DNA from: an uncultured Candidatus Saccharibacteria bacterium
GTDB lineage: Bacteria > Patescibacteriota > Minisyncoccia > Phycocordibacterales > JAKFXT01
Reading direction: 5' to 3'
DNA length: 64,000 nucleotides
Assembly (NCBI GenBank): GCA_964541455.1
Contig: CAZIPS010000003.1
Coordinates: 2,663 to 66,662 of the forward strand
The position numbers and the translations under genes were made by a program. Below the pieces are notes generated by a model. The model searched no databases, was not told the origin of the DNA, and saw nothing but the letters and a program-made list of their open reading frames with translations. Below, piece after piece: positions 1-63,546 of this stretch (position 1 is the stretch's first letter; each line of letters starts with the position of its first letter).

Positions 1-711
1 CACCTTATCTGGTTTTACCTTGCTATAGACCGCTACACCACTATAGCCCTTACGGGTTTGAGATGAAGAGAAGTACTTGTGATAACCAACAAGTGAGATA
101 AGCTCTTCTGGCGCCTGACTCTCCTCGCATTTTGTCTCTTGAAAACAGAAAATGTCTGGAGATTCTTTAATAAGCCAAGCGAGTGCCCCCTTCCTATGCA
201 CTGCCCGTAGCCCGTTTACATTCCATGAGATAATGTTCATTCTGCCAATTTTAGCATATGCTTATGTGAGTCACTTACTTACGAGGAGTAAGTCGTGTAC
301 CTATACGTTCTGCAACTGGGAGAAAACGGCCCCTGGGCCTGTAACATCAAAATGATCGAAAGGGTAATCGATCACCTTGGTGTTGTCCCCTTTGGGGTAT
401 GGCTTATCGAAGATGACAGGGGTCCTTCACTTTACTTTGGGGAAAAGCCAACTTTTTGTGCCGACCCAGAACTTCTCACTTCCTACACTTCCATACGAGC
501 GGCAGTATGGGGAGAATATGGTGAATTTGGGTATGAAGAGCTCTATCTTACCTTTGGCTTCTATGAAACAGAGACAGGGGAAGAAGAGTATCAATGGACC
601 ATAAGCCTGAACAACGAACTAATCGTCATGAGAAGAGAAGCGAGAAAGGAAGGTCTTCGGGAACAGACAATTCGAATCAAGATCTGAAACGCGAGGGAGG
701 CCTCGCGTTAT

Positions 712-18152: not shown

Positions 18153-18180
18153 CAGCCCCCGGGTTCGCCCGGGGGTTTTA
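18153..18180 (+). terminator. Intrinsic terminator of cassette C
   Basis: CCCCCGGG-TTCG-CCCGGGGG followed by TTTT. Confidence 0.8.
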
Positions 18181-18972: not shown

Positions 18973-19063
18973 TTTTTCCCTTGCCAGAAAAGCTGCGCAA
19001 TCCACAAAAAACGTTTTATATAAGCCATTAAAGACAACATGTCTGATATACTTTATGTAGGCT

Positions 19064-20128: not shown

Positions 20129-20133
20129 TCTAT

Positions 20134-21747: not shown

Positions 21748-21749
21748 CT

Positions 21750-24218: not shown

Positions 24219-24233
24219 TATATAATAGAGAAT

Positions 24234-25397: not shown

Positions 25398-25529
25398 AGC
25401 GTAAGCTTTGTGTTGTTTATACCACCCACCCTTAATCAACACGACATATCCTCTTATCTGCGCGACAAAGAGCGCAATCTCTTATATTATTAGAGATACC
25501 AAGCGCATTGTCGTTTCAGTATTTTTTAT

Positions 25530-26051
25530 ATGCAATTCCAAGTTCCTCAATTTATTGAAGTAGAAGACAAGCTTTTTGGTCCTCTTACCCTTAAACAATT
25601 CATTTATCTTGCTGGGGGAATAGGTGTTTCGGCGATCTTCTACCTTGTTATTCCTTACCACTTTATTGCCATAGTTCTTGCGGTTCCTTTCGTTGTTTTT
25701 GCGATTGCCTTAGCTTTCTACCGCATTAACAGTAAACCATTTGTTGAGGTGCTTGAGGCAGCACTTTCCTACTACTTTAAAAACAAGCTTTATATATGGA
25801 AGAAATCCGACAAGAAAATTGAGGATCGTCCAAAAGAAGAAGTATCTGAACCCTCTCTCGATACACTTTTTGCCCCACGCCTCTCTGAAAGCAAGCTCAA
25901 AGATCTCGCGTGGAGCCTTGATGTTACTGATAAAGTAATAAACAAAGAGGTTCAAAGGGGAGGGGGGTCCCGCATTACGTATAACGAAGACGAGCGCGAG
26001 AAAGTTGAGTTCCAGAAAAACTACGAAATTGGAGCTAAGGGGCACCTATAG
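25530..26051 (+). CDS. PrgI/VirB3-like small membrane protein
   Basis: 173 aa with two adjacent N-terminal TM helices (LAGGIGVSAIFYLVIPYHFIAIVLAVPFVVFAIALAFY) directly upstream of the VirB4 ATPase, matching typical PrgI-family topology and placement. Confidence 0.5.
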   Translation: MQFQVPQFIEVEDKLFGPLTLKQFIYLAGGIGVSAIFYLVIPYHFIAIVLAVPFVVFAIALAFYRINSKPFVEVLEAALSYYFKNKLYIWKKSDKKIEDRPKEEVSEPSLDTLFAPRLSESKLKDLAWSLDVTDKVINKEVQRGGGSRITYNEDEREKVEFQKNYEIGAKGHL

Positions 26052-26056
26052 AACAT

Positions 26057-26692
26057 ATGGCTACTGAACAAACATCAGCAACACAAGAATTCGTCCCTAT
26101 CAAAGAGGTACGTGACGGCATTGTCCTCCTTAAAGACGGAGGTCTGCGTGCAATTCTTCTAACCTCTTCTATTAACTTCGCCCTCAAATCACAGGACGAG
26201 CAAAATTCCGTTATTTTCCAATTCCAAAACTTCCTTAACTCTTTAGACTTTCCTGTAGAAATCTTCATTCAATCAAGGAAACTCGATATTCGCCCCTACA
26301 TTGCTCTCCTCGAAGACCGCTATCGAGATCAAGTTAATGATCTACTTAAAATACAGACTCGTGAGTACATCGAGTTCATAAAAAGCTTTACTGAAAGTGC
26401 TAATATCATGACTAAAAGCTTCTTTATTATTGTCCCCTACAATCCAGCAAGCCTTACCGCTGAATCAGTTGGTGGGTTCTTTAGTAAGAAAAAAGATGAA
26501 GACAAAACAAAGGATGCGGCTGCACGCTTCGAAGAAAACCGCAGCCAACTCGAGCAACGCATTGCTGTTATCGAACAAGGACTTATACGTACAGGAGTTC
26601 GTGTCGTACAATTAGGTACTGAAGAAATTATTGAACTTTACTACAAGATCTTTAACCCTGGAGAGCAGGACAAGCCAATTAAGTTGCCATAA
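26057..26692 (+). CDS. Putative N-terminal segment of the VirB4-like ATPase (split gene), or a separate T4SS accessory protein
   Basis: 211 aa ending at a TAA 2 nt before the ATG of the Walker-A-containing ORF, which is in a different frame. Combined length of about 817 aa matches full-length VirB4/TrbE. Confidence 0.4.
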   Translation: MATEQTSATQEFVPIKEVRDGIVLLKDGGLRAILLTSSINFALKSQDEQNSVIFQFQNFLNSLDFPVEIFIQSRKLDIRPYIALLEDRYRDQVNDLLKIQTREYIEFIKSFTESANIMTKSFFIIVPYNPASLTAESVGGFFSKKKDEDKTKDAAARFEENRSQLEQRIAVIEQGLIRTGVRVVQLGTEEIIELYYKIFNPGEQDKPIKLP

Positions 26693-26694
26693 TT

Positions 26695-28515
26695 ATGGGT
26701 GTTTTCGATTTCCTTATTACGAATAAGAAAAAAGAAGCAGGGAATGCGCTCACCGCTATTTTGCCGCGAGACATCTATGAATCTGGTGTTTTGGAACTTA
26801 AAGACATTATTGCCCCCTCTGCACTTAAAATCACGCCCAAAGAGCTCAATTTGGGCGAGAAAATTATTCGTACCTTTTTTGTTATCTCTTATCCTCGTTT
26901 TCTTTCGGAAAGTTGGTTTGCGCCGATTATTAACCTCGACAAGGTGTTTGACGCTTCTATTTTTATTCACCCTATTGAAACCGCTCGCATTTTAAGGCAA
27001 TTCCAGAAAAAAGTAGCGGAGGTACAAAGCCAAATCCACGAGAGAGAGGAGAAGGGGTTAGTGCGTGATCCCGTGCTTGATACCGCCTACCAAGACCTTG
27101 AACAGCTTCGTGACGGCCTTCAGCAAGCACAAGAACGTATTTTTGATGTTGGGCTCTATATATCTATTTACGGTGATTCTGATGCCGAACTTGATAAGGT
27201 AGAGTCTGAAATTAAATCTATCCTCGAATCAAAGTTGGTGTATATAAAACCAGCCCTCTTTCAACAAGAACAAGGGTTTAAAAGCGTTATTCCTCTTGGA
27301 AATGATGAGTTAGCAGTTCATTCAAAACTTAACTCTTCGCCACTTTCAAGTGTTTTTCCTTTCATCTCTTTTGACCTCACTTCAGACAAGGGAATTCTTT
27401 ATGGCATCAACCGACACAATGCAAGTTTGGTACTTTTTGACCGCTTCTCTCTTGAAAATTACAACTCTGTCGTCTTTGCGAAGTCTGGATCTGGTAAGTC
27501 CTACACCACCAAACTCGAGATCCTCCGTACCCTTATGTTTGACACTGAAGTGATTGTTATTGATCCCGAGCGCGAATACGAATATTTAGCCGAAGCCACC
27601 GGCGGACGCTATTTTAATGTTTCGCTTAATTCTGAACACCACATTAACCCTTTTGATCTTCCCATCCCACGCGAAGACGAATCCCCAGCTGATATTCTTC
27701 GCAGCAACATTGTAAACCTCGTAGGGCTTTTCCGTATCATGATGGGGGGGCTCACTCCCGAAGAAGATGCCATTATTGACCGCGCAATTACTGAAACCTA
27801 TGCCCTCAAAGACATTACCCCTGAATCAGACTTTACTGCTATCGAACCCCCACTTATGGCTGACTTTGAACTTGTGCTTTCGGGCATGGAAGGAGGGGAT
27901 TCCTTGGCACAACGACTTACTAAATACACTAAGGGAACATGGGCTGGCTTTATCAACAAGCCGACAAACGTCGACATTAATAAAAAGTTTGTTGTGTTTT
28001 CTGTGCGTGATATGGAGGATGAGCTTAAACCTGTTGCCATGTATATCATTACGCACTTTATTTGGAATGCTATACGCAAAGAAATTCGAAAACGTCTCCT
28101 TGTTATCGATGAAGCATGGTGGATGATGAAATCAGATGATACTGCCTCTTTCCTCTATAGTCTTGTAAAACGTGGTCGTAAATACTTCCTTGGAGTAGCG
28201 ACAATTACCCAAGACGTCGATGACTTCCTTAAAAGCCAGTATGGGCTCCCCATTATCACCAACTCATCGCTTCAACTTCTCCTTAAACAATCTCCATCAT
28301 CAATCGATAATGTTCAAAAGATATTTAACCTTACCGAAGAAGAGAAATATCTACTCCTTGAGTCAGACGTAGGGGAGGGGATTTTCTTCGCAGGACTAAA
28401 ACACGTGGCGATTAAGATCATTGCCTCATACACCGAGGACCAGATTATTACCTCTGACCCTTCTCAAGTGCTTTCGATCAGAAAAGCCAAAAATGATTTG
28501 CGCCTTGCTTCTTAA
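26695..28515 (+). CDS. VirB4/TrbE/CagE-family type IV secretion ATPase (C-terminal NTPase portion)
   Basis: 606 aa with Walker A (VVFAKSGSGKSYTTK) and a Walker B-like motif (LLVIDEAWWMM). Confidence 0.8.
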   Translation: MGVFDFLITNKKKEAGNALTAILPRDIYESGVLELKDIIAPSALKITPKELNLGEKIIRTFFVISYPRFLSESWFAPIINLDKVFDASIFIHPIETARILRQFQKKVAEVQSQIHEREEKGLVRDPVLDTAYQDLEQLRDGLQQAQERIFDVGLYISIYGDSDAELDKVESEIKSILESKLVYIKPALFQQEQGFKSVIPLGNDELAVHSKLNSSPLSSVFPFISFDLTSDKGILYGINRHNASLVLFDRFSLENYNSVVFAKSGSGKSYTTKLEILRTLMFDTEVIVIDPEREYEYLAEATGGRYFNVSLNSEHHINPFDLPIPREDESPADILRSNIVNLVGLFRIMMGGLTPEEDAIIDRAITETYALKDITPESDFTAIEPPLMADFELVLSGMEGGDSLAQRLTKYTKGTWAGFINKPTNVDINKKFVVFSVRDMEDELKPVAMYIITHFIWNAIRKEIRKRLLVIDEAWWMMKSDDTASFLYSLVKRGRKYFLGVATITQDVDDFLKSQYGLPIITNSSLQLLLKQSPSSIDNVQKIFNLTEEEKYLLLESDVGEGIFFAGLKHVAIKIIASYTEDQIITSDPSQVLSIRKAKNDLRLAS

Positions 28516-28520
28516 TATTC

Positions 28521-29192
28521 ATGCCTCCCGAGCTTAAAGAAAATCGAATACCCACTCATACTGCGGGGTTTATGCTCGCCGTAGCCGCTTTTTTTGACCT
28601 TTTACAAATATTTTTTAACCTTATTCTAATCGGTTTTCTCATAAACTGGACGATTACCCTTATTTCATTTTTAACCTTTTTTGTTTGGTTTAAACTTTAT
28701 GGTGTAAACCTAGGCGATAGCGCTAAGAAAATAGCGCTTTGGCTCACCGACTATGCCTTCGATATTTTTAGTGGAGGGATTTTCCCTTCGATTTTTATTA
28801 GCACCCTTATCACTATTCTTATAGTTAAGTCAGACGATGCGCTTCGTAACCAAGGTATTGACCTCAACCTCTCAACCTCTGCCTCTTATCGCAAAAAAGT
28901 GGCGGAAAACAGGAGGGCATACCAAGCATCACTACAAAGTAACGAAGAGGAGAGTGCAGAGGGTGGGGAAGAGTCTCCCGAGCGTTTCAAAGAAACATTA
29001 TCTCGTGTTTCCCGTAGTGGAGCAGTCCCAGGGAACGAGAAAGGGGCTGCTACCACACGGGTACCCCTCACCTCAAGCGCCCCCACAGTTATCCCAAACA
29101 ATAATCAAAAAACAGAAAATAATAGCGGAATTCTTGGTAGAATAAATAGAACTTCAAACAAAAGCAGTGAACCCTATGTTAAAGCCGTTTAA
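28521..29192 (+). CDS. Hypothetical polytopic membrane protein (223 aa) in the T4SS-like cluster
   Basis: At least 3 TM helices followed by a charged C-terminal tail. Overlaps the next gene by about 26 nt. Confidence 0.45.
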   Translation: MPPELKENRIPTHTAGFMLAVAAFFDLLQIFFNLILIGFLINWTITLISFLTFFVWFKLYGVNLGDSAKKIALWLTDYAFDIFSGGIFPSIFISTLITILIVKSDDALRNQGIDLNLSTSASYRKKVAENRRAYQASLQSNEEESAEGGEESPERFKETLSRVSRSGAVPGNEKGAATTRVPLTSSAPTVIPNNNQKTENNSGILGRINRTSNKSSEPYVKAV

Positions 29193-30195
29193 TATATACC
29201 GCTCTCTTAAAAAAAGCCTTGTTTTTTTAGCGCTTTTTATGCCTTTTGTTTTTGCACGCGCCGAAGCTTCTCTTACTCCCTATGCTGAGGGAGTAAGTAC
29301 TGTTGTTACCCCCCAAAATCCTGGCCCTAATACCCTTATAACTATCCAACTGCAAAGTTCATTGGTGAACCTTGAGGCCTCGACTGTTATTTGGAGCGTT
29401 AACGGTAAGGTTATTCAATCGGGTAAAGATAGTCGCAGCTTTTCCCTTCGCCTTGGCGGTATAGGGAGTAAGAGTGTTGTTGATATCTATATCAAAAGTG
29501 ATAATTTTGGCACTATCAGCAAAACTCTAACTTTTGCCCCAACAAGTGTTGAACTCCTTTACCAAGCCTCTTCTTATACCCCACCCTTCTACAAAGGAAA
29601 GGCGCTCATCCCCTCGGAAGGCGTTGTTACCCTCTACGCACTTCCAAACTTTAAAACAAGTTCTGGATCAATTCCTCAAACAGCAAGTCTTGTTTTTACA
29701 TGGAAAAAGGATGGGGTTGTTGACGGAAATAATTCTGGACTTGGAAAAAATAGCTATCGCTATGTTAATGGAAGACTACCAGAAGATGGTCCTTCAATTG
29801 AAGTCTCTGTTGTTGATCCTAAGAGTAACTTACAAGGCTATGCCGCCTTTGCTGCCTCAACAGTTAACCCTGAAGTTGTTTTTTACGAGAATAACCCCAT
29901 TTTAGGAGTTAACCTCAATCAAAGTATTCAGAAGGACTACGCCCTTACCAAGCAAGAACTTTCTCTTATTGCCTACCCTTATTACTTTGGTACCAAAAAT
30001 AGAAATGCTCTAGGGCTTTCCTATACTTGGAATATCAACGATAACCCGGTTGCAAACAGTGCATCTGACAAGGGAACATTAACCGTGCGTAGTCCTGGGG
30101 GGAAGGGGGTTGCAAACATTTCACTTGGTGTTGAGAATAAACTAAGACTCCTTCAAACAGCGTCAAGTATTCTTTCTATTACCTACGGTCAATAA
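29167..30195 (+). CDS. Hypothetical secreted protein (342 aa), probably beta-rich
   Basis: Signal peptide (LVFLALFMPFVFARAEAS) and an Ig- or beta-sandwich-like composition. Confidence 0.45.
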   Translation: MNPMLKPFNIYRSLKKSLVFLALFMPFVFARAEASLTPYAEGVSTVVTPQNPGPNTLITIQLQSSLVNLEASTVIWSVNGKVIQSGKDSRSFSLRLGGIGSKSVVDIYIKSDNFGTISKTLTFAPTSVELLYQASSYTPPFYKGKALIPSEGVVTLYALPNFKTSSGSIPQTASLVFTWKKDGVVDGNNSGLGKNSYRYVNGRLPEDGPSIEVSVVDPKSNLQGYAAFAASTVNPEVVFYENNPILGVNLNQSIQKDYALTKQELSLIAYPYYFGTKNRNALGLSYTWNINDNPVANSASDKGTLTVRSPGGKGVANISLGVENKLRLLQTASSILSITYGQ

Positions 30196-30199
30196 TTTT

Positions 30200-30832
30200 A
30201 TGAAAAAATTTCACCCACATCTTCCACGCCCTTCTGTGTTAGCGATATTTTTCGTTTCTTTTGTTCCTTTTGCTTCACTTTTTGCTGCAACTGGCGACTA
30301 CCAATTACTTGCCCCCCTTCCTTCTTTTGGTTCTTCATACAATCCAGGACTTTTTGTAAACTACGTCCAAACTTTTATTAAACTTTCAATCACTCTTTCA
30401 GCTATTTTAGCGGTTGCTTTTATCACTATAGGTGGCTTTCAGTGGATGGGGGGAGATTCAATGCAAATGAAGTCTGATGGTAGGAAAAAGATAGAAGATG
30501 CTGTACTTGGCCTTGTTATATTAGGAGCTTCTTTTCTTATTCTTAATACCATTAACCCTGCGCTTCTCAGCTTTAAACTAGAGGTTCCTACTCTCATTAC
30601 TGGAGACACGTCCAACCAAACACAAACAAGTTACCAAGTTGATGATCTAACTAATGTTGGTCAGCAAATTCAAAACCAAATGAATCAGAATCCAAACGCT
30701 TCACCAACAGTTCAAATACGAAGTGGGACAGCTGATGAACAAAGTAATATCAGTGCTCAATGTAAGGCAAATAAACCAGGGTCAATCGGTGCCATAAAAG
30801 ACCCTACAGGGAAGTTTTATACTTGTATGTAA
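30200..30832 (+). CDS. VirB2/TrbC-like pilin subunit candidate
   Basis: 210 aa with a signal peptide, then two hydrophobic helices (IKLSITLSAILAVAFITIGGFQWMGG ... AVLGLVILGASFLILNTI) typical of T4SS pilins, and a C-terminal extension. Confidence 0.5.
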   Translation: MKKFHPHLPRPSVLAIFFVSFVPFASLFAATGDYQLLAPLPSFGSSYNPGLFVNYVQTFIKLSITLSAILAVAFITIGGFQWMGGDSMQMKSDGRKKIEDAVLGLVILGASFLILNTINPALLSFKLEVPTLITGDTSNQTQTSYQVDDLTNVGQQIQNQMNQNPNASPTVQIRSGTADEQSNISAQCKANKPGSIGAIKDPTGKFYTCM

Positions 30833-30835
30833 TAT

Positions 30836-32116
30836 ATGTCTAAAACTACAGCTATTAGTATCGTTATTGGTTTCATTCTCCTTTTGGGTGGGGGGTTAGC
30901 TTATTGGTACTACACTATAGGTCCTAAAAATCCAAGTCAACAAAACCCCCAAACAAACACCGGGGGCAATAACCTTTTCCCGTTTGGGAACACTAATCAA
31001 TCAAATAATGGCACCACTTCAACAAGCACCAATCAAACTGTAGTGAGTAAAGAACCCTCTCCCCAAGTTCGTAAGGTGTCAGCTACCCCAATTGCCGGCT
31101 TTTCTCCTCTAAATGATAAAACGTTAGGGGCGTCAGTCCGCTATATGGAAGTTGAAACAGGCAACATCTATGAAGCCCCTCTCCAAGTACTTTCAACTCG
31201 ACGCATCAGTAACACCACTATTCCAAAAGTACGAAGTGTCCTTTGGCTTCCGCAAGCGAGAGCTTTTATTGCTCAATACCTTGGTGGCGATGATGAGACG
31301 ATCCAGAGTTTTTACGGTGATATTAACCCTCCACAGAACGAAGGACAGGAAGGTAACGTAACAGGGAAGTTTATGGATGATGGCATTACCGCACTTGCCT
31401 CACTTACCCCGTTTTCTGCGAGCACTACCCTTAAAAATCCTGGTAAAATTTTCTATCTTAAAAACACCACAAACGGTGCGGAGGGTTTCAGTGCCTTACA
31501 AAATGGTAGTAAACCAACTTCCGTATTTAACTCTCCACTTTCTGAATGGCTTCTTCTTAACAGTGGGGGAGACGCCCTTTTCCTTCAAACTAAGTCCTCC
31601 GCACTTGCTTCCTCGTATCTTTTTAGTCTAAACCCTTCAACAGGCGCTTTGAGTAAAGTGCTTGGAAACATTGTTGGCCTCTCTTCATTACCAAACCAAA
31701 AGGGGGATATGGTGCTTTATTCCGAAACACTAAACAAGAAACCTCTACTTCACCTCTACAATGTAGGTAAAAATACTTTCCAAACCATTCCTCTTAATAC
31801 CTTTGCTGACAAATGCGCATGGCTTGAAAGTACTACCACTAAAGCAACAAACTCCTCACGCATCTATTGTGGCGTTCCTTCTTTAATGCTTTCACAAGTC
31901 CTATACCCTGATAGTTGGTACCAAGGAAAGACAACTTTTAATGATGACATTTGGGAGATCAACCCAACAACACTTGAGTTAAACAAACTTGTTCCACTTG
32001 TTGATAGTGGGTCATACCTCGATGTTTGGAACCCTTCCTTAAGTAGCGATAGCGCCTATTTTATCTTTATAAACAAAAGGGATTTAACTTTGTGGAGTAT
32101 TAAGCTAAGGGGGTAG
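30836..32116 (+). CDS. Hypothetical exported protein with an N-terminal TM anchor (426 aa), last gene of the T4SS-like block
   Basis: N-terminal TM helix, a Gln/Asn/Thr-rich linker and a large extracellular domain. Confidence 0.45.
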   Translation: MSKTTAISIVIGFILLLGGGLAYWYYTIGPKNPSQQNPQTNTGGNNLFPFGNTNQSNNGTTSTSTNQTVVSKEPSPQVRKVSATPIAGFSPLNDKTLGASVRYMEVETGNIYEAPLQVLSTRRISNTTIPKVRSVLWLPQARAFIAQYLGGDDETIQSFYGDINPPQNEGQEGNVTGKFMDDGITALASLTPFSASTTLKNPGKIFYLKNTTNGAEGFSALQNGSKPTSVFNSPLSEWLLLNSGGDALFLQTKSSALASSYLFSLNPSTGALSKVLGNIVGLSSLPNQKGDMVLYSETLNKKPLLHLYNVGKNTFQTIPLNTFADKCAWLESTTTKATNSSRIYCGVPSLMLSQVLYPDSWYQGKTTFNDDIWEINPTTLELNKLVPLVDSGSYLDVWNPSLSSDSAYFIFINKRDLTLWSIKLRG

Positions 32117-33974: not shown

Positions 33975-35315
33975 ATGCTTGATAACAAACAATTGTGGGA
34001 AAGTGTTTTAACTGATATTGAGCAAAATGTTTCAAAGGCGACCTTTACTACTTGGTTTAAAGATACAGGAATAATGAAACAAGATGAGGGGGTGGTGTTC
34101 CTTTCAGTCCCTAACCAATTTGTAAAAGAGTGGCTTTATAATAAATACCATAAGACTATTTTAAAAAACCTTCGAGATTTAAACGAACAAGTCCGTAATA
34201 TTGAATATGTGGTTAACAAGGAACCACCTAAGATGGTCGAGACTATCCGAAAGGTCGACAACCCCACTAATGAGCTCCCCCTTGCTGACCATTATGTTAA
34301 TAAAGAAGATAATCTAAACCCTCGCTATACATTCGACTCTTTTGTTGTGGGATCTTTTAATGATATGGCCTTTGCCGCTGCTCAAGCGGTTATGAAAAAA
34401 CCTGGTATTGCGTACAACCCTCTTTTTATCTATGGAAATACTGGGCATGGGAAAACACACTTAATTCAAGCAATAGGGAATTATATTAAGCACGCTTCTC
34501 CAAACAATAAGGTGTACTATATTACTTCCGAAAATTTCTACCTTGGGCTTGTTAATGCAATGCAAGAAAACAAAATTCTTTTGTTTAAAGAAAAGTACCG
34601 TAAATACGATGTTTTTATTATGGATGACGTACAGTTTTTATCTAATAAAGAAAAAACTCAAGAAGAACTTTTTCATCTTTTTAACACCCTCTATGATAAT
34701 AATAAACAAATTATATTCTCTTCAGATAAACATATAAACCAAATCCCTAATTTAGAGGATAGAATTAAATCTCGCTTTGGAGCAGGGATGATTGTTGATA
34801 TTCAGGCCCCTGACTATGATTCTCGTGTCGCAATTATCAAAACAAAGTGTGCTGTACAAGGGATTCTTCTCCCTGAGGAAATAGTGTCTTACCTCGCTGC
34901 TTCTGATAACAGTATCCGTGAGTTAGAGGGGGCCTTAAACACCATTACCTACCAAATCCAACTTAAAAATAAAGTCCTTTCGTTAGCTGAGATAAAAAAC
35001 ATTATTAAAGAGACGAGTAAACCTAAAAAAATGTTTTCTGTTAAGGAAATCATAAAAACTATCGCTGATTTTTACGACATCCCTGAAACAAGTATTTACG
35101 AAAAAACAAGAAGAAAAGAAGTGGTAAAACCAAGGCAAATTATTATGTATATCTTAAGAGAAGATTTTAAGGTGTCATATCCAACTATCGGAGAAAAGTT
35201 GGGGGGAAGAGATCATACCACTGTTATCCACTCATGTGAAAAAATTAAACATGATATTAAAGAGGATCTTCAGTTAAGTGAGGAAATTGATCGGATTAAG
35301 ACATTATTAAAATAA
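33975..35315 (+). CDS. dnaA: Chromosomal replication initiator protein DnaA
   Basis: 446 aa. Walker A (IYGNTGHGKTHL), sensor/Box VII, and a C-terminal DNA-binding domain (KPRQIIMYILREDFKVSYPTIGEKLGGRDHTTVIHSCEKI). Confidence 0.97.
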   Translation: MLDNKQLWESVLTDIEQNVSKATFTTWFKDTGIMKQDEGVVFLSVPNQFVKEWLYNKYHKTILKNLRDLNEQVRNIEYVVNKEPPKMVETIRKVDNPTNELPLADHYVNKEDNLNPRYTFDSFVVGSFNDMAFAAAQAVMKKPGIAYNPLFIYGNTGHGKTHLIQAIGNYIKHASPNNKVYYITSENFYLGLVNAMQENKILLFKEKYRKYDVFIMDDVQFLSNKEKTQEELFHLFNTLYDNNKQIIFSSDKHINQIPNLEDRIKSRFGAGMIVDIQAPDYDSRVAIIKTKCAVQGILLPEEIVSYLAASDNSIRELEGALNTITYQIQLKNKVLSLAEIKNIIKETSKPKKMFSVKEIIKTIADFYDIPETSIYEKTRRKEVVKPRQIIMYILREDFKVSYPTIGEKLGGRDHTTVIHSCEKIKHDIKEDLQLSEEIDRIKTLLK

Positions 35316-35474
35316 GTATGTGGAAAATATGTTGGTAATAACTGAAAAAGGTGAGGGAAAGTATGTAAGTTATCCAGTGATTAAAAAAAGCTAGAGGTAT
35401 ATTCCACAAAAAAGAATGGTAGTTATAAAAAAATATAAGATAAAAAACCTATATACCACCTACTATAATAACCT

Positions 35475-35490
35475 TATCCACTTATCCACT
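35475..35490 (+). promoter_or_regulatory. Two tandem perfect DnaA boxes (TTATCCAC TTATCCAC) in the AT-rich dnaA-dnaN intergenic region, the putative oriC
   Basis: CCTTATCCACTTATCCACTACG within the 192-bp AT-rich spacer 35316-35507. Confidence 0.7.
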
Positions 35491-35507
35491 ACGTAATTAT
35501 CTGTTGT

Positions 35508-36602
35508 ATGAAATTTGAATGTAATAAAGAAAAACTACAAGAGTTAGTAGTTAAAATAGAAAAAACAACAAGTCGGAACGCAACACTTCCCATTCTTAGT
35601 TGTATTCTTTTGGTGGTTAAAGATAAAACACTTACACTTAAAGCCACTAATTTAGAAGTAGGAAGTGAGCTTATACTCCCTGTAAGGGTGGAAAAAGAAG
35701 GAGTGGTTGCAGTTTCTGGTTCTCTTTTTTCTCAAATCCTCTCCTCCTTAAAAACAAATAAAAACCTTACTATAGAAGAGAAGGATGGGGGGGTAGAAAT
35801 AAAAACAATAGAAACAACTGTTTTTTTAAAAACAAATCCTTATGAAGAGTTTCCGCTTATCCCTCGTATTGAGGCAGATAAAAAAATAGTTATAAAAGTT
35901 AAAGATATTATTCTTGGGATAAAAAGTGTGGTGTATAGTGCTTCTCTTTCTACTATTAAACCAGAACTTGGAAGCATCTATATTTACCAAGAAACAAATA
36001 CACTTATTTTTGTTGCAACAGACTCTTTTAGATTGGCAGAGAAAAAAATTGTTGTTAAAAATATAGAACAATTTCCTTCAATACTTATTCCCTACAAAAA
36101 TGCCTTAGAAATTGTAAGGCTTTTTGAAGGTGTTGATGAAGAGGTGGAGTTTTTAATCACTAAAAATCAAATTAGTCTCGAACATCAACATATATTTATT
36201 ACCTCAAGAGTTGTTGATGGAGTCTTTCCTGATTACACACAAATAATACCAAAAGAAAATATCGCCACAGCGTTAGTGTTAAAACAAGATATTATTAACG
36301 GTATTAAAAGTCTCTCAGTGTTTTCTGATAAGTTTAATCAAATTATTTTTACTCTTACAAAAGAGGGAATAGTGCTTGAAACGAAAAATAACGATATTGG
36401 AGAAGGAAAAACAGTAGTGGTGGGGAAAGTAACAGGAGAGATGGTTAAAGTTAAGTTTAATCAAAAATATATCACTGATGCTTTTTCTACACTAACCGAT
36501 GAATCAATCCTCCTTTCTTTTTCTGAAGAAAGAAAACCACTTGTTATAGAAGGTGCTTCAAATAAGAGCTTTAAGTATCTTGTTATGCCAATGAATAACT
36601 AA
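35508..36602 (+). CDS. dnaN: DNA polymerase III beta sliding clamp
   Basis: 364 aa in a three-domain clamp architecture, conserved position after dnaA, and C-terminal motif LVMPM. Confidence 0.9.
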   Translation: MKFECNKEKLQELVVKIEKTTSRNATLPILSCILLVVKDKTLTLKATNLEVGSELILPVRVEKEGVVAVSGSLFSQILSSLKTNKNLTIEEKDGGVEIKTIETTVFLKTNPYEEFPLIPRIEADKKIVIKVKDIILGIKSVVYSASLSTIKPELGSIYIYQETNTLIFVATDSFRLAEKKIVVKNIEQFPSILIPYKNALEIVRLFEGVDEEVEFLITKNQISLEHQHIFITSRVVDGVFPDYTQIIPKENIATALVLKQDIINGIKSLSVFSDKFNQIIFTLTKEGIVLETKNNDIGEGKTVVVGKVTGEMVKVKFNQKYITDAFSTLTDESILLSFSEERKPLVIEGASNKSFKYLVMPMNN

Positions 36603-36604
36603 AC

Positions 36605-36859
36605 ATGTTTGAAATTAAAGATATTATTGCCAGGTTTTCTTTAAAAATTTCTCCAGAAAGAAAGGTTAATCTCGCATTAAAAGATTATTTTAAAGAAAAA
36701 AATATTCCTTATACTGGCGTTGCTCCAAAAATCTCACAACAAACAGTGTTTATCCATGGGGATAGTTATACAAAAATGTATATACAAACATATCAAAAAG
36801 AGATACTCGCACTTATACAAAAAGTACTGCCAGAAAGTAACATACAAACGATTAAATAA
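36605..36859 (+). CDS. Small protein downstream of dnaN, possibly DUF721/DciA-like
   Basis: 84 aa. Position and size are reminiscent of DUF721 proteins near dnaN. Sequence similarity cannot be verified here. Confidence 0.3.
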   Translation: MFEIKDIIARFSLKISPERKVNLALKDYFKEKNIPYTGVAPKISQQTVFIHGDSYTKMYIQTYQKEILALIQKVLPESNIQTIK

Positions 36860-36864
36860 AAAAC

Positions 36865-39369
36865 TTAACGTTTAAGGTCGATAAGGAGGGGAACTTCTTT
36901 TTCACTACTATCAAGAGAAGTATTATAACCAACTATTTTTAACGTATTACGCTCACCTACAAGACCAGTAATATTCCGAGGAAGAATAGAGAAATAAAAA
37001 GGTTTTTGCGAAAGGGATCCGTAAAATCGATTGTTTATATATACATCAACCTTACTTAAACCAACGCCATCAACAGAAAAAGAGAAAGCTTGCGAGTAGG
37101 GGTGAACCGCTGTTTCATCATACCCACTAAAAGAGATAGGCTCTTGATTTTGAGTAATTGGAGCATTATCAACCCCAACAGTTCCACCACTTACTAAACT
37201 ATGCTCATTGGCGTACTTAACAACAGCAGTTTCCCAGTAGTTAAACTGAGGATCAGAAGCGGGGTTTTGTGGACGGATGCCGCTTGTAGGGTTGTCTTTA
37301 TCAACCCAATAAAGAATAGAATGAATATTTGGAATAACAATTTCTTTTTGATCTTCTTGAGGTGTCCCTTCGGTTGCCCTTGCCCCTGTTCTTATATCTA
37401 TAGTATATGACTCACCTCCTTGCCATATACCACGAAGTACTGGAGGGAACTTGCTCTTATCTACTGGGTCTGGTTGCTTAAAACGCTCATTAGGAAGGTT
37501 TTGTAGTGCATAAGCCATATATTCGTGCCACATAGGAGCAACGACCTGGCCAGCAACTTTTTTCTGCATAGGCCTATTATTGTTATTTCCTGCCCAAGCC
37601 CCTGTGACGAAAGAGGGGGTATAACCGACTACCCAAGCATCACGATAATCGTTAGTAGTACCTGTCTTAACCGCCACCTGGTTTCCTGGGAAATAAAGGG
37701 CAGAGCGCTCCCCAAAAGTAGGAACACGAGCGTCATTATCAGAGAGCATATCTGAAATAGTACGCGCAATATTACTATCAATTGCCACACTATCCTGTTG
37801 CTCATACTCTTCAAGGGTAGTGTTACTGCTGTCAGTAACTTTTAATATACCAACATAGGGATTTTTAACCCCATCATTAGCAAAAGCTCCATAAGCATTA
37901 GTAAGCTCAAGAAGGGTAACCTCTCCACCCCCCAGTACGAGTGTAAGGCCATAACGATCTTTGTCAGTAAGGGTGGTAATCCCCATATCTTTTGCTGTTT
38001 GAAGTGCATTGTCTACTCCCGCAAGGTAAAGCACTTTAACCGCAACAACGTTTAAAGATTGTGCCAAGGCATCACGAAGGGTTACAGGGCCACGGAATAG
38101 GTTGTCGTAGTTGTTAGGACTGTAGCACACCGCATCAGGGCTAAGGGGCTTACTGTCGGGGCTACAGTAAGTAGAAAACTCCGTCTTAACATCAAAAAGC
38201 ACTGTTTCAGGGGTGTATCCTTTTTTAAAAGCAGTGGCATACACAAACGGTTTAAAAGAAGAACCAGGCTGCCTTTTAGCAAGAGTAATATTTACATTGC
38301 CATCAATAGTTTTGTCGAAGTAATCTCTGGAACCCACCATAGCAAGTATTTGTCCAGTTTTTGGGTCAATTGATACTAATCCGGCGTTTTCAGCATCAAA
38401 CTTTTCTTTGTTTGAAAGCGCATATTTTTTAACTATTTCTTCGGCTTTAGCTTGAAGTCCTGCATCAATAGTGGTGATGATTTTTAAACCATCTTCGTTA
38501 AGTGCCTGCTCACCGTACTTAGAAGCTAAATAGTCTCTAAGGTAGAAAACAAAATGAGGGGCGATCGATCCACTGTGGAGTGGGGGATAGAAAACTACAT
38601 TTTCGGCCATAGCTTTCGTATACTCATCCTCGGTGATATATCCCTGCTCCTTCATTTTAAGGAGAACCAAATTTTTCCTTTTATCAAGATCCCCCTTGTG
38701 TGTGCCGTAAGGAGAGTAGTAGGTAGGGGCTTGGGGGAGTGAAGCTAGGTACGCTGCTTCTGCAAGAGTAAGGTCGCGAGCATCTTTTTTAAAAAAAGTT
38801 TGTGAAGCCTCTTCAACACCATAAATATTCCCCCCATAGGGAGCGTCATTAAGGTAGATATTTAAAATCTCATCCTTTGAAAGCACCTGCTCAAGCTTGA
38901 TAGCAAGCACCCATTCTTTAAGTTTTCTAGAAATACTCTTGTCTTTAGTAAGAAGGGAGTTTTTAACCACTTGCTGGGTAATGGTAGACCCCCCTTGGCT
39001 ATACCCAAGAGAGGTAACGTTGGCAAAAATAGCACGAATAATGGAGGTTGGCTTAATACCGTGGTGTTGGTAAAACTCAGCGTCCTCTATAGCAATAGCT
39101 GCCTTTTTAACAAAAGGGGAGATTTGGTTAAAGGGAAGCTCGGTGCGAGCAACATCTTGATGAAGGTTAAAAAGCTCAACTGTCCCTGTACGATCATAAA
39201 ACTTAGCAGCAGCAGAGACAACGCGGTCATTAAAAGAGGTAACATCAGGGAGTTTAAGGGTTGAGGCCCAAAGGAGAAAAGCCCCACTGCAAAAAAGGAT
39301 AAGACTAAAAGCGATAAGGAAAAAGTGGATTTTCCTAACCCTTTTTTTGTGTGGGTGGGAGCCCTTCAT
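36865..39369 (-). CDS. Class A penicillin-binding protein 1A (glycosyltransferase GT51 plus transpeptidase)
   Basis: GT51 motifs (AIEDAEFYQHHGI, QGGSTITQQ), transpeptidase motifs (SSFKPF, SLN, KTGT). Start placed at the internal Met (MKGSHPHKKR) that precedes the TM anchor. The ORF track extends to 39447. Confidence 0.9.
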   Translation of the reverse strand: MKGSHPHKKRVRKIHFFLIAFSLILFCSGAFLLWASTLKLPDVTSFNDRVVSAAAKFYDRTGTVELFNLHQDVARTELPFNQISPFVKKAAIAIEDAEFYQHHGIKPTSIIRAIFANVTSLGYSQGGSTITQQVVKNSLLTKDKSISRKLKEWVLAIKLEQVLSKDEILNIYLNDAPYGGNIYGVEEASQTFFKKDARDLTLAEAAYLASLPQAPTYYSPYGTHKGDLDKRKNLVLLKMKEQGYITEDEYTKAMAENVVFYPPLHSGSIAPHFVFYLRDYLASKYGEQALNEDGLKIITTIDAGLQAKAEEIVKKYALSNKEKFDAENAGLVSIDPKTGQILAMVGSRDYFDKTIDGNVNITLAKRQPGSSFKPFVYATAFKKGYTPETVLFDVKTEFSTYCSPDSKPLSPDAVCYSPNNYDNLFRGPVTLRDALAQSLNVVAVKVLYLAGVDNALQTAKDMGITTLTDKDRYGLTLVLGGGEVTLLELTNAYGAFANDGVKNPYVGILKVTDSSNTTLEEYEQQDSVAIDSNIARTISDMLSDNDARVPTFGERSALYFPGNQVAVKTGTTNDYRDAWVVGYTPSFVTGAWAGNNNNRPMQKKVAGQVVAPMWHEYMAYALQNLPNERFKQPDPVDKSKFPPVLRGIWQGGESYTIDIRTGARATEGTPQEDQKEIVIPNIHSILYWVDKDNPTSGIRPQNPASDPQFNYWETAVVKYANEHSLVSGGTVGVDNAPITQNQEPISFSGYDETAVHPYSQAFSFSVDGVGLSKVDVYINNRFYGSLSQKPFYFSILPRNITGLVGERNTLKIVGYNTSLDSSEKEVPLLIDLKR

Positions 39370-43058: not shown

Positions 43059-43635
43059 AGCAATGTTTCAATTGTACCATTTTAGAAAAGGAGGGTGGGG
43101 GAGGGGTCAAAAAAGACCACAGGAAAAGGTACTTGACAAGAATGAGCTAGTATGCTAGACTTAACCTCAGCCTGATTAAGAGGGCCTTTTTATTTAAAGG
43201 CAGCAGTGTCTAGAAATAGAGGAGCTTTCTTTACAAAAAACGGGCATTTTTTGTTGGCTATCCAGCATATTGCTCTCTAAGAAATTGGGTCCCCGTGACC
43301 TACTGGTGTTCCTGCAAGGACTTCCTGGTGCTTATCTTTACGATAAACCGCTGGCAATCTCCTCAGAGGAATTCTTAACTTTTGATACTTCGTATTAAAA
43401 GTATTTCTTAGAGAGTAATCGGCTGGATAGAGCGCTCAATATTAAGAACCTAGGGTCTATATAAAGAAAAAGTCCTCATGTGTGGGGGCTTTTTCTTTTT
43501 CACTTTGCTACTTAAAAAAGATTACTCCTCTTTTTTGTTTAGGACAACTAGACGTTACCGGTTTTCAGTTTCTAATACAAAAATAACAAGATCTAAAATT
43601 TTTTTGTGCAGACGTCAACTTTGTTGTTAAACATG

Positions 43636-45303: not shown

Positions 45304-45386
45304 TTCCCTTAAATCATAGCATGGGAGTGTCGTAAAAGAGGCCGAGGCAGAGCCATTTTTAGGGGATAAGGGAGAGAGGAGGAGGG

Positions 45387-45415
45387 TTGACTTTTAGCAA
45401 TTTTTCGTGTATAAT
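45387..45415 (+). promoter_or_regulatory. Perfect-consensus sigma70 promoter of cassette D (TTGACT-17-TATAAT)
   Basis: -35 TTGACT at 45387-45392, 17-nt spacer, -10 TATAAT at 45410-45415. SD AGGAGAAGG lies upstream of ATG 45470. Confidence 0.7.
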
Positions 45416-45469
45416 ATCAACCATCAAGCTTGGGAAGGGTCCCAGGCTCGCACATTACAGGAGAAGGTC

Positions 45470-45955
45470 ATGTATACTCGCTTTGCAGTTCCGGTGGTTC
45501 TCGTGCTCGTCGCCCTCTTCGGGGGTTGTGCGGGCATCAACTCGATAGACCCGCAAGTCTATCGTTACGGGGGCGGCTTTCAGTCCGATTTCGTCGTCAC
45601 AGCTCCGCCTTGTAAGCAATTGCAGGCGGAAGGTAAGTCGTGGCAGGCAATTCAATGTCAAAGTGGCGTCAACGCGCAGGCGCGCGACAATGCGACGACG
45701 GTTTTCCTAGAGGAGGCCCGCCAGGCAGAGCTCATCTACTGGCAGGCCTATAACTCGGTCCGTGTTGGGCCGGAAGGGTTCGGTGTCAGTCAGTTCAGCT
45801 GCCGCCCGTTTCGTATCTCCCTCGTTAAGTTCAGTCGTTGCAACGACGGCCTGCGCGAGGGGGCGCAAAACGCCATCCGCAATGCCTACTGGCAGAGCGA
45901 GCGCGACATGCAAGCCGCGCGCGAGGTGGGGAGAACGCACACTAATAGCCGATGA
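45470..45955 (+). CDS. Hypothetical lipoprotein, GC-rich cassette D (161 aa; signal peptide with lipobox-like LFGGC)
   Basis: About 59% GC with its own promoter, SD and terminator. N-terminal MYTRFAVPVVLVLVALFGGCAG and four further Cys residues. No recognisable domain. The ORF track starts at 45407. Confidence 0.6.
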   Translation: MYTRFAVPVVLVLVALFGGCAGINSIDPQVYRYGGGFQSDFVVTAPPCKQLQAEGKSWQAIQCQSGVNAQARDNATTVFLEEARQAELIYWQAYNSVRVGPEGFGVSQFSCRPFRISLVKFSRCNDGLREGAQNAIRNAYWQSERDMQAAREVGRTHTNSR

Positions 45956-45983
45956 GGCTTGGACCTTCTCCTTCCAGTTTCAA

Positions 45984-46008
45984 GGCGTCCTTTCGGGGAT
46001 GCCTTTTT
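45984..46008 (+). terminator. Intrinsic terminator of cassette D
   Basis: GGCGTCC-TTTCGG-GGATGCC (one G-U pair) followed by TTTTT. Confidence 0.6.
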
Positions 46009-46048
46009 CATTTCCCCTTACATTTTCGAGAGGTTGGTGCATGGTAGA

Positions 46049-46486
46049 ATGGGGGCAATGAAACGTCTTGTTAAAAGTTTGGAGGAAATGGACCTTTTTG
46101 CCGAAGAAGTGTTGGCAAGCCTTCCTTTAGAGAAGGAGGCGACACTTCTTACCCTTAAAGGAGAACTTGGGGCAGGGAAAACGGCTTTTACTAAAGCTAT
46201 AGCGAAACATTTAGGGGTGGTTGAGGTCGTAAATAGCCCTACGTTCGTGGTCATGAAATCTTATGATCTTGTAGGGCGCGCGTATAAAAAACTCATTCAC
46301 ATTGATGCGTATCGTATTGAAGACATATCTGAACTTAAGCCTCTTAAGTTCGAAACATTACTAAAAGACCCGTCGAACCTCATAGTGCTTGAGTGGCCAG
46401 AACGCATAAGTGAAGCGTTGCCTAAAGATGCGCGGACTATCAAGTTTACGTTTGTGGATGAGACGACGCGTGAAGTGGAATATTAA
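46049..46486 (+). CDS. tsaE: tRNA threonylcarbamoyladenosine biosynthesis ATPase TsaE (YjeE)
   Basis: P-loop LKGELGAGKTAFTKAIAKHLGV and downstream VNSPTFVVMKSY, the TsaE signature. The start is taken at an internal Met. The ORF track begins at 45959 and overlaps the cassette D terminator. Confidence 0.85.
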   Translation: MGAMKRLVKSLEEMDLFAEEVLASLPLEKEATLLTLKGELGAGKTAFTKAIAKHLGVVEVVNSPTFVVMKSYDLVGRAYKKLIHIDAYRIEDISELKPLKFETLLKDPSNLIVLEWPERISEALPKDARTIKFTFVDETTREVEY

Positions 46487-50906: not shown

Positions 50907-51070
50907 GGGGTACAGGGATCTTTCGCTGTACGAATAGTATAGCTTCCCCATTTTTTGTAACAGGAATTTGTCGTCACGGATAATTTTGTTTTCGTCAAAA
51001 CAAAATTTCCTTGACCACGACTCGCGGTTTTGCGTACTCGCAAAACATCGCTCCGTCTCGGACTTGTAGT

Positions 51071-51098
51071 AAAAAACAGTGCGCAGGCACTGTTTTTT
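51071..51098. terminator. Palindromic terminator hairpin downstream of tRNA-Lys; an identical element recurs at 63283-63320
   Basis: AAAAAACAGTGC-GCAG-GCACTGTTTTTT. The reverse-complement-identical copy follows tRNA-Arg(TCT). Confidence 0.75.
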
Positions 51099-51104
51099 CT
51101 CAAG

Positions 51105-51176
51105 TCCGCCCAGCAGGGATCGAACCTGCGACCAATTGCTTAAAAGGCAACTGCTCTACCACTGAGCTATGGGCGG
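51105..51176 (-). tRNA. tRNA-Lys (anticodon UUU)
   Basis: Manual cloverleaf: acceptor CCGCCCA/UGGGCGG, D-arm GCUC-AGUGGUA-GAGC, anticodon loop CUUUUAA, T-arm GCAGGUUCGAUCCCUGC. Confidence 0.85.
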
Positions 51177-63206: not shown

Positions 63207-63281
63207 CTCCCCGTAGTTCAATGGATAGAACAGGAGACTTCTAAGCTTCTGATCGTGGTTCGATTCCACGCGGGGGGACCA
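63207..63281 (+). tRNA. tRNA-Arg (anticodon UCU), CCA encoded
   Basis: Acceptor CUCCCCG/CGGGGGG, D-arm GUUC-AAUGGAUA-GAAC, anticodon loop CUUCUAA, T-loop GGUUCGAUUCC, 3' ACCA. Confidence 0.8.
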
Positions 63282-63282: not shown

Positions 63283-63320
63283 ACAAGAAAAAACAGTGCC
63301 TGCGCACTGTTTTTTCTTGT
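63283..63320. terminator. Palindromic terminator hairpin after tRNA-Arg(UCU); same element as 51071-51098
   Basis: ACAAGAAAAAACAGTGC-CTGC-GCACTGTTTTTTCTTGT. Confidence 0.75.
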
Positions 63321-63546
63321 ATGGTCCGGCCGCAGCTATATTTTGCTAGCGAGCAAAATTGTGCGAGGCGGGGTCGCGAAAAAAGCGAGTGGCGACGAGC
63401 TTTTATTCGTGACACAGAGAAGTAAAGAAACAAAGCGTCCACGCGGAACATTGCAAGCGACGGCGCGCAATGTATCTGTGACACAGAGTGGGGGGGTTCA
63501 CAGAGATAGTAAAAAACCGCCCGAAGGCGGTCGGTGAGTGGAGGGG

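Follow-up and report, generated by a model that had tools for sequence, protein, structure and literature searches.

Phage morons, such as bor and lom of lambda and gene 15 of HK97, are made up of a single open reading frame (ORF) with its own sigma-70 promoter and its own factor-independent terminator. The two genes on either side of a moron are direct neighbors in some relatives. Morons differ in composition from their flanks and carry small lipoproteins or membrane proteins as cargo. The bor product of lambda is a lipoprotein. A unit with the same features has been identified at positions 45387-46010 of a 64,000-nucleotide (nt) stretch of contig CAZIPS010000003.1, which is from an uncultured bacterium and is referred to here as the window. 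It contains one gene, here called X, which encodes a putative lipoprotein and is found between pilB and tsaE. The autonomous unit that is expected of a moron (promoter, ORF, and intrinsic terminator) is present. Unlike morons, however, the X unit is not located in a phage or prophage. Its flanks are ruvB, pilB, tsaE, and polA, and it has no match among PHROGs, BFVD, or phage genomes. Its inheritance at a single chromosomal site has also been stable, both between species and between genera, and its promoter is conserved while the cargo changes. The X unit is anatomically closest to a phage moron, yet it fails the defining feature of phage residence.

Other described systems share some properties with this locus. 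The vsp/vlp and vlsE sites of Borrelia and the vsa/vlp sites of Mycoplasma are similar in that recombination replaces or diversifies a surface lipoprotein at one strongly promoted site, where the expression signals remain constant. At the site of X, however, the variation is between strains, species, and genera, and not within a clone. There are no silent archive copies in the window and no switch repeats, and the cargo families are unrelated instead of paralogous. Braun's Lpp is a small and very abundant alpha-helical lipoprotein with a strong promoter and a stable messenger RNA (mRNA). X resembles it as a small lipoprotein, mainly alpha-helical in its mature part, whose promoter is near-consensus, whose mRNA is structured and probably stable, and whose terminator is strong. 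X has no sequence or profile similarity to Lpp (no match to Pfam LPP), and an intramolecular helical hairpin with disulfides is predicted for it in place of a trimeric coiled coil. It ends in ...TNSR and lacks the C-terminal Lys for peptidoglycan linkage, and its host is presumably a monoderm. Genomes in which leaderless genes are mixed with leadered genes that depend on a Shine-Dalgarno (SD) sequence are found in the Actinobacteria and Deinococcus, and they correspond to 'group C' of GeneMarkS-2. The host of X is similar in having leaderless genes with a -10 element just before the ATG and a leadered, SD-led minority. It differs in that this minority consists of GC-rich orphan units for secreted proteins with consensus promoters that contain a -35 element. 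An integron gene cassette was rejected as a description of the unit, because X has its own promoter and terminator and no attC-like inverted repeat, integrase, or boundary repeats shared among the GC-rich units were found.

The best explanation of the locus, with a probability of roughly 55%, is that X is an old resident of a class-wide, variable, and insulated 'expression slot', probably of high output, that is situated between the divergent genes pilB and tsaE-polA. The unit is on the plus strand. It begins with a sigma-70 type promoter that scores 11/12, in which the -35 hexamer TTGACT (45387-45392) and the -10 hexamer TATAAT (45410-45415, preceded by GTG) are separated by a 17-nt spacer. 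If transcription starts 7 nt past the -10 element, the predicted 5' leader is about 48 nt long (45422-45469). The leader would contain a 9-bp, 5'-proximal hairpin (45427-45448; free energy (dG) -14.2, z-score (z) -1.9) and the SD sequence GGAGAAGG (45460-45467), whose duplex energy is -7.4 kcal/mol versus a host median of -1.6. No known RNA element was found in the leader with Rfam. The coding sequence (CDS) of X extends from 45470 to 45955, with an ATG at 45470 and a stop codon at 45953-45955, and encodes 161 amino acids (aa). It is followed by an intrinsic terminator (45982-46010), which has a 10-bp stem and a UUUC loop (hairpin 45982-46005) and then a T-run. The terminator hairpin has a dG of -15 kcal/mol and a z of -4.0, and none of 200 shuffles was equally stable. 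The terminator insulates tsaE-polA from the slot transcript.

Loci anchored on PilB were taken from the GTDB species genomes, where the best PilB identity was 72%. Every relative obtained belongs to the Patescibacteria and is of the Paceibacteria/Parcubacteria type. The host of X is an ultra-small Paceibacteria-type bacterium from the Candidate Phyla Radiation (CPR)/Patescibacteria. The sample accessions led to no paper on its habitat. The gene order polA-tsaE-slot-pilB-ruvB-yebC is widely conserved, and the content of the slot is not. The slot has no gene and measures only about 100-220 nt in L033 and L038, where pilB and tsaE are adjacent. It is also empty in L035, where polA abuts pilB. A small GIY-YIG ORF is present in L031. 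In 13 other genomes, the slot is 620-1,820 nt long and contains a gene for a secreted protein or lipoprotein. Such a gene is divergent from pilB in about 13 of the 17 informative relatives. Distant members of the X family (25-38% identity to X) were found in L017 and L018, with the lipoboxes LQGGC and LLQGC and the motif VGPxGF...C. Over 14 genomes there are at least three unrelated cargo families, at least two of them besides X (one in L020, L021, and L024 and one in L019, L022, and L027). Common ancestry of these families was considered and rejected, because HHalign similarity was limited to the signal peptide and lipobox. No description of a locus in the slot between pilB and tsaE was found in the literature that was searched. 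The locus appears to be an expression slot that is conserved throughout the class, has mRNAs with unusual properties, and had not been described before.

The expression signals are shared even though the cargo is not. A consensus promoter (10-12 of 12 positions) precedes the cargo in 11 of the 13 occupied slots of the relatives, irrespective of cargo family. It has the form TTGACA-17/18-TATAAT (12/12) in L020, L021, L024, and L025 and the form TTGACT-16/17-TATAAT in L017, L018, L026, and L027. The -10 element is often preceded by GTG, and a leader, usually an SD sequence, and a terminator follow. There is no such promoter in the three relatives with an empty slot, all of which keep pilB. The 'textbook' promoter belongs to the slot and not to the X gene. 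A first-pass annotation of this DNA had pointed out the TTGACT-17-TATAAT promoter, a 161-aa ORF of about 59% GC, the lipobox LFGGC with four additional Cys residues, and the terminator, and all of these are present in the sequence. It had also described the promoter match as rare, and this did not hold. The exact pattern TTGACN-16..18-TATAAT was found at least once in 12 of 100 shuffles of the window, and about 2.1 matches of at least 11/12 are expected per shuffled window, where the real window has a single one. The match is not statistically exceptional by itself. The promoter is credible because of its position and its conservation in relatives, and not because of chance rarity in AT-rich DNA. 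It is not a sign of engineering, as it is the norm for the slot across the class, with any cargo.

The age of X at this site can be judged from its orthologues. At least nine contigs, drawn from ENA, JGI, and Logan assemblies that are independent of each other, code for an identical X protein. In each of them, pilB and X are divergent and the order is ruvB-pilB-X-tsaE-polA. Orthologues of 92%, 72%, about 35%, and about 25% identity are located at the same pilB-X-tsaE-polA position. In the 92% and 72% lineages, the promoter hexamers and their spacing are identical, and the leader hairpin, SD sequence, and terminator are kept. In the 72% lineage, 4 of 4 substitutions in the stem of the leader hairpin keep pairing, and the terminator stem survives an indel as well as pairing-preserving substitutions (z -5.0). 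Identity at 4-fold sites between the window and the 72% lineage was compared with the identity expected at saturation. The observed and expected values were 0.30 and 0.26 for pilB, 0.29 and 0.28 for tsaE, 0.40 and 0.26 for polA, 0.40 and 0.28 for ruvB, and 0.47 and 0.30 for X. The flanks are near or at synonymous saturation, and the divergence of X is comparable. Since X is as diverged as its flanks, it was already at the site in the common ancestor. The ratio of nonsynonymous to synonymous changes (dN/dS) in X is 0.16 against the 72% lineage and 0.08 against the 92% allele, and the ORF therefore codes for a protein under purifying selection.

There can be very little doubt that X is not a recent insertion. 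It is an old resident of the site and, in the best explanation, has been vertically inherited. The unit had been read earlier as an insertion that landed immediately upstream of tsaE. That reading is right in that X is an autonomous unit of foreign composition in a slot that is variable, and the proposed search for relatives in which pilB and tsaE are adjacent without X did find them (L033 and L038). It is wrong as to a recent landing, given orthologues that have diverged like the flanks. An orthologue of host composition at this site was to have counted against the insertion. Orthologues do exist at the site, but they do not have the host's composition and are GC-rich as well.

Although the site is old, its content has been exchanged between strains. 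A tract within X (45575-45890, plus strand) has only 77-83% identity to the 92% allele, where pilB and polA are at least 99% identical. When the window is compared with the 92% strains, both the X tract and parts of tsaE fall to 77-86% identity. L009 and L008 differ in the tract end. This pattern is a recombination mosaic and not hypermutation. A larger difference is seen between L017 (JAKFXT01) and L018 (JBBTUX01), two metagenome-assembled genomes from GTDB, in which PilB is 91% identical and the X-family proteins are 36% identical. The two proteins differ by a segment of about 22 residues that holds the pair equivalent to Cys48 and Cys63 of X. Either the slot protein has evolved extremely fast or it was swapped for a divergent allele.

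X also stands apart from its neighbors in how it is expressed. The minus-strand gene pilB has an extended -10 element (TGCTATGAT, 45313-45321) that ends 9 nt before its ATG at 45303, which is the leaderless style of the host. The plus-strand gene tsaE has an extended -10 element (TGGTAGAAT) at 46042-46050 and a probable leaderless start codon at 46058 (together 46042-46060), and in relatives a TGn-extended -10 element is likewise found a few nt before the tsaE ATG. The first-pass annotation had regarded the backward extension of the tsaE reading frame over the terminator as artificial, and this was borne out. The 175-aa 'tsaE' ORF from a TTG at 45959 is an artifact of ORF listing, because residue 6 of the protein with its start at 46058 is already the first of the Pfam TsaE domain, and the orthologues are called at 142-145 aa. 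The pattern TGnTAnnnT, ending 5-12 nt 5' of the ATG, was found for 16 of 60 genes in the window, including pilB, tsaE, and rpsO, where 0.46 are expected (p ~2e-20). The anti-SD duplex energy upstream of the window's genes has a median of -1.6 kcal/mol and is 0 for many. Because extended -10 elements hug the ATGs and the SD energies are weak, the genome of the host appears to be largely leaderless and SD-less.

The GC-rich genes are among those with the strongest SD sequences of the window: -13.1 kcal/mol for the gene at 17548, -11.2 for 3524, -10.4 for 4082, and -7.4 for X. X differs from its neighbors in four independent ways: in its composition, in the type of its promoter, in having a leader, and in how the start of translation is signaled. 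In 7 of 13 relatives, the slot gene has an SD sequence of -6 kcal/mol or stronger, while pilB is leaderless, and every slot gene of the X and A5 families in relatives is SD-led. No description of a dichotomy between leaderless and SD-led genes in Patescibacteria was found in the literature that was searched.

The composition of X is equally distinct. The CDS has a GC content of 0.595 (59.5%) and a third-position GC content (GC3) of 0.69, in a window with a GC content of 0.43 and a median gene GC3 of 0.386. A GC3 of about 0.7 is reached by just three genes of the window. The flanks of X have GC3 values of 0.39-0.45, and the GC boundaries around the unit are sharp. In 11 of 14 genomes, the GC3 of the slot gene is higher than that of its own pilB, polA, and tsaE (Wilcoxon p=0.0017). 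All low-GC hosts show an excess, between +0.07 and +0.35, and the three hosts whose flank GC3 is highest have slightly negative values. When slot GC3 is regressed on flank GC3, the slope is 0.46, and slot genes are therefore buffered toward a GC3 of about 0.7. The X homologues of L017 and L018 have GC3 values of 0.63 and 0.54, with flanks at about 0.27-0.32. The GC excess has lasted over 28% PilB divergence, beyond the neutral amelioration time, which argues against a single fading transfer. Translational selection was rejected as the sole cause of the high GC3, because the gene for ribosomal protein S15 has a host-like GC3 of 0.41.

The transcripts are also more structured than expected. The whole X transcript has a z of -4.25 against dinucleotide shuffles and its 72% orthologue has a z of -4.76, compared with -1.29 for a tsaE-polA control. 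For coding sequences, the null was a permutation of synonymous codons in which the protein and its codon usage were fixed (30-50 shuffles). Nine slot genes from three families had a mean z of -2.79, and 24 housekeeping controls from the same genomes had a mean z of -0.30 (Mann-Whitney p=0.0009; 0.008 with related lineages collapsed). The two other GC-rich units of the window had CDS structure z values of -2.5 and -1.9. Excess mRNA structure is not predicted by transfer alone, and it is predicted by selection for a structured, presumably long-lived mRNA. That the GC content is maintained for mRNA structure is the leading explanation, although it is held at somewhat less than even odds.

Ancient or repeated transfer is the main rival on the matter of GC-richness. 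It would make X a moron-like cassette, horizontally acquired and still ameliorating, whose donor was richer in GC and used SD sequences. The acquisition could have been a single event in the clade's ancestor or a repeated one. The different slot families would then be independent insertions at a permissive, divergent intergenic site. There is a good deal to recommend this. The GC3 of X (0.69) is an outlier from the median of 0.386, its signals are 'foreign-style' in a leaderless genome, and its GC-to-AT changes outnumber its AT-to-GC changes by 18 to 7. The slot is empty in L033, L035, and L038 and is occupied by unrelated families elsewhere. Two further self-contained, species-restricted orphan units that are GC-rich are present in the window, and Patescibacteria are competent and have recombination genes (PMC12455944). 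However, the orthologues at the same site have diverged like the flanks, and the GC excess is found at the 72% level of PilB identity, far past the time for neutral amelioration. No donor lineage for X was found among 5.8 billion proteins, phages, and plasmids. No integrase, mobility genes, boundary repeats, or target duplication were found at the X unit in the window, and there are no paralogous, silent, or fragment copies of X within the 64 kb. In addition, one form of promoter precedes unrelated cargo, and transfer alone fails to predict the excess structure over synonymous permutations. Overall, the cassette is considered unlikely.

A role for X as an accessory lipoprotein of the type IV pilus, for example at the pilus base or the assembly platform, would tie it to PilB and explain the divergent arrangement. 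The frequency of that arrangement in relatives is in its favor, as is an element found between pilB and the slot promoter. This conserved upstream element (AGCCATTTTTAGGGG, 45351-45365, no strand assigned) has the form AGCC(A/G)TTTT(T/C)(A/G)GGGG and is present in the window, L017, and L018, and also in L025. In L017 it forms a perfect palindrome of 15 bp (z -5.4), and in L018 the palindrome is shorter. The window has a degenerate half-site, which corresponds to the right arm of the palindrome that is intact in L017 and L018. The element, as a palindrome or half-site common to the pilB and slot promoters, is a candidate operator for pilB, the slot promoter, or both. Type IV pili are also central in the CPR lifestyle. 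Nevertheless, a pilus function is improbable. The cargo families, of which there are at least three, are unrelated and differ in their predicted folds. Three relatives have pilB but an empty slot, and no pilus-related domain was found in X with Pfam or NCBIfam. In the window, pilB stands alone among housekeeping genes, and neither pilC nor pilM accompanies it.

GC-biased gene conversion is a minor rival and slightly less probable again. The slot would be a recombination hot spot where transformation-driven exchange across conserved flanks raises GC as a by-product. It could account for the mosaic tracts in X and tsaE between strains with 99% identical pilB and polA, for the contrast between PilB and X in L017 and L018 (91% and 36%), and for the buffering of slot GC3 to about 0.7 at any host GC. 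However, tsaE recombines too and yet has a host-like GC3 (0.42), and the polarized changes in X are AT-biased instead of GC-biased. The conservation of promoter, SD, and terminator would also be left unexplained, as would the excess structure that is seen when the null keeps codon usage fixed. Finally, the layout of promoter, ribosome-binding site (RBS), ORF, and terminator resembles a designed part with sharp GC boundaries, but an assembly chimera, contamination, or an engineered or planted insert is refuted by the recurrence of this sequence, in this context and with natural allelic variants, in ENA, JGI, and Logan assemblies that are independent, by the purifying selection on X, and by the conserved architecture in GTDB genomes of other species.

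If X is the resident of an expression slot, several steps can be proposed. Strong, constitutive transcription by sigma-A would produce a long-lived, structured mRNA, and canonical SD-dependent initiation on it would give a high output of protein. High expression of X is likely from these signals. The protein would be exported by Sec, lipidated at Cys20, and cleaved by signal peptidase II, so that the 142-aa protein would be tethered to the outer face of the single membrane by a flexible linker of about 25 residues and displayed on the cell surface as an alpha-helical hairpin stapled by disulfides. Over evolution, the cargo would be diversified or swapped, through recombination imports between strains and by other families in other genera, while the expression architecture is kept. 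Because cargo turns over under a constant expression architecture, GC-richness is seen as a maintained property of the slot mRNAs and not as the fading trace of a recent transfer. In agreement with this, signal-peptide proteins of unknown function have been reported among the top expressed genes in metatranscriptomes of Paceibacteria (PMC10936435), and Patescibacteria are considered to be competent and capable of recombination, with recombination genes kept (PMC12455944). Both observations are consistent with the slot model.

A number of observations weigh against the slot explanation or parts of it. The promoter strength, the transcription start, and the abundance of X are all inferred from sequence. 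The slot genes of relatives were delimited by ORF calls made for this analysis, and the start codons are uncertain for L019, L022, and L027. The leader hairpin only marginally beats its shuffles, and its counterparts in other slot families are not significant. The number of shuffles behind the CDS null is small, and with it there was no excess structure in the L017 homologue (z +0.9) and only weak excess in L008 and L029. An AT-rich codon ramp at the 5' end is seen in X (0.45 versus 0.71), but it is not general in slot genes (p=0.68). The 18 GC-to-AT and 7 AT-to-GC changes were counted among polarized third-position changes in X, and this bias fits ongoing amelioration no worse than mutation-selection balance. 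As for the protein, the lipobox of X has F at -3 and G at -2 and is non-canonical when compared with L-[AS]-[GA]-C. Lgt and LspA were not found among the 10 membrane or secreted ORFs that were scanned in the 64-kb window.

X is almost certainly a real gene, and its product is an orphan and probably a small surface lipoprotein. Its N-terminus is MYTRFAVPVVLVLVALFGG followed by Cys20, with R4, the hydrophobic region FAVPVVLVLVAL, and the lipobox LFGG-C20, and it satisfies a rule in the style of PROSITE PS51257. The signal peptide corresponds to residues 1-19, the codon for the lipobox Cys20 is at 45527-45529, and the mature part has 142 aa and a pI of 8.7. A lipobox Cys is found in all members of the X family, whose lipoboxes are LFGGC, LQGGC, LLQGC, and LQGC. 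Cys20 is invariant in alignment A3, and the LQGC of the sixth member, P0013, is one column off in alignment A4. The lipoprotein call of the first-pass annotation agrees with these results and, judged from the N-terminus and its conservation, is very probably correct. A literature search on lipoprotein acylation returned nothing specific to CPR.

Among 5.8 billion proteins, the X family is represented by just six clusters, and their sources are Patescibacteria or contigs without a name. No match for X was found in Pfam, NCBIfam, PHROGs, PADLOC, PDB sequences, BFVD, phage genomes, or plasmids. An exhaustive HMMER search of 1.84 billion representatives returned family members, weak motif matches to repeat proteins, and nothing else. 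These matches (P0005-P0008) cover residues 93-137 of X and have E values of 4e-7 to 1e-4 summed over 4-6 target repeats. X was rejected as a beta-propeller-like protein of tandem 'GxDGFPV...KCND' repeats of about 45 aa, since it has one copy only. The AlphaFold2 model of residues 93-137 is a helix and a small beta-hairpin, and the match is probably a motif-level or chance resemblance.

The structure of X was modeled with AlphaFold2 from an alignment of the six family members, with a predicted local distance difference test score (pLDDT) of 76 and a core of 80-93. It replaced a poor earlier model from 3 sequences (pLDDT 62). The model contains a signal-peptide helix, a disordered part (18-35) within a linker of about 25 residues in which G, Y, and R are frequent, a short helix at 46-53, a first long helix at 57-95, a small beta-hairpin tip (98-106), and a second long helix (118-159). 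Cys residues are at positions 20, 48, 63, 111, and 124. Cys48 and Cys63 are either both present or both absent across the X family. Cys111 is invariant in the family, and its likely partner is Cys124 in helix 2 within the X clade and a Cys near the end of helix 1 in L017, L018, and P0013. This pattern is as would be expected for disulfide staples in an extracytoplasmic helical hairpin. Differences in X at the strain level are concentrated in the 50-57 loop and the 102-122 tip. Fold searches with the model returned generic helical matches alone. The best guess is that X is an abundant surface or host-interface lipoprotein with a structural or adhesive role. A related predicted protein of 111 aa, P0004, was found outside the window. 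It shares its final 59 residues, without a difference, with the C-terminus of the 72% X orthologue, and its first 52 residues resemble a fragment of a Kef-type cation/H+ antiporter. Either P0004 is a chimera that arose in assembly or, in some population, X has been disrupted by a rearrangement.

A wider interpretation can be offered only tentatively, as the odds are against it. Paceibacteria, and perhaps CPR more widely, may have a dedicated slot beside pilB in which the signals are kept over class-level time. The cargo would be the protein that dominates the surface or host interface of the cell, and transformation and recombination would swap it. A GC-rich, structured, SD-led mRNA would then be a selected mode for bulk proteins. 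If this is true, the distinct expression mode would also account for the other GC-rich orphan units of the window. Patescibacteria are a large and mostly uncultured group, attached to other microbes, and the surface proteins behind attachment are largely unknown. The slot would provide a rule to find the probable major surface protein of a lineage, namely a consensus promoter, an SD sequence, and a GC-rich ORF between pilB and tsaE, and such proteins would be candidates for host recognition or for interplay with phages or immunity. GC-rich islands in low-GC CPR genomes would not automatically be recent horizontal transfers. There would be two regimes of translation initiation in one genome, with mRNA structure and GC apparently tuned for output. 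The strong promoter, RBS, and terminator parts would be useful for CPR genetic tools. The narrow finding is that X, though an orphan, is a lipoprotein gene of an ordinary kind and has long been in place.

Other features of the window were also noted. The spacer between ruvB and pilB (43059-43635) is unusually long (578 nt) and low in GC (0.36-0.39). It holds a 28-nt inverted repeat (43258-43285 and 43403-43430, 89% complementary) and a promoter-like site (10/12) at 43133. In the equivalent spacer of the 72% lineage, an 80-aa ORF has been called.

Two adjacent orphan ORFs are present on the plus strand at 3524-3958 and 4082-4519, between an NYN-domain gene and pnp. They encode 144 and 145 aa without a signal peptide and have no family matches. 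Their GC3 values are 0.71 and 0.57, and their SD energies are -11.2 and -10.4 kcal/mol. The pair is flanked by strong terminators (3410-3458 and about 3975-4000), is identical in 8 contigs of the same species, and has a CDS structure z of -2.5. A GC-rich unit on the plus strand (17486-18180), between pcrA/uvrD and rsmA, has the promoter TTGACT-17-TTTAAT, an AGGAGG SD sequence inside a small hairpin, and a terminator. Its gene (17548-18138) encodes a 196-aa signal-peptide protein with a GC3 of 0.71, and its single homologue cluster (97%) in 5.8 billion proteins indicates that it is species-restricted. For cassette B, a metagenome scan anchored on PcrA returned an identical contig and relatives of at most 39% identity only.

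A same-strand run of ORFs for secreted and membrane proteins, including a VirB4/TraG-type ATPase (26695-28515), extends from about 19000 to 32100. It is probably the monoderm-type type IV secretion system that has been described for Patescibacteria. A low-GC island (0.31 versus 0.43) at about 34400-37000 is a compositional anomaly opposite to that of the GC-rich units. The ORFs there (33975-35315, 35508-36602, and 36605-36859) have GC3 values of 0.19-0.32, and the ORF at 35508 is the gene for the beta-clamp of DNA polymerase III (dnaN), by synteny with L007. Lastly, a 73-nt inverted repeat (51028-51100 and 63286-63358, 77% complementary) is located beside the transfer RNA genes at 51105-51176 and 63207-63278, and it includes near-identical terminator-like palindromes (AAAAAACAGTGC...GCACTGTTTTTT).

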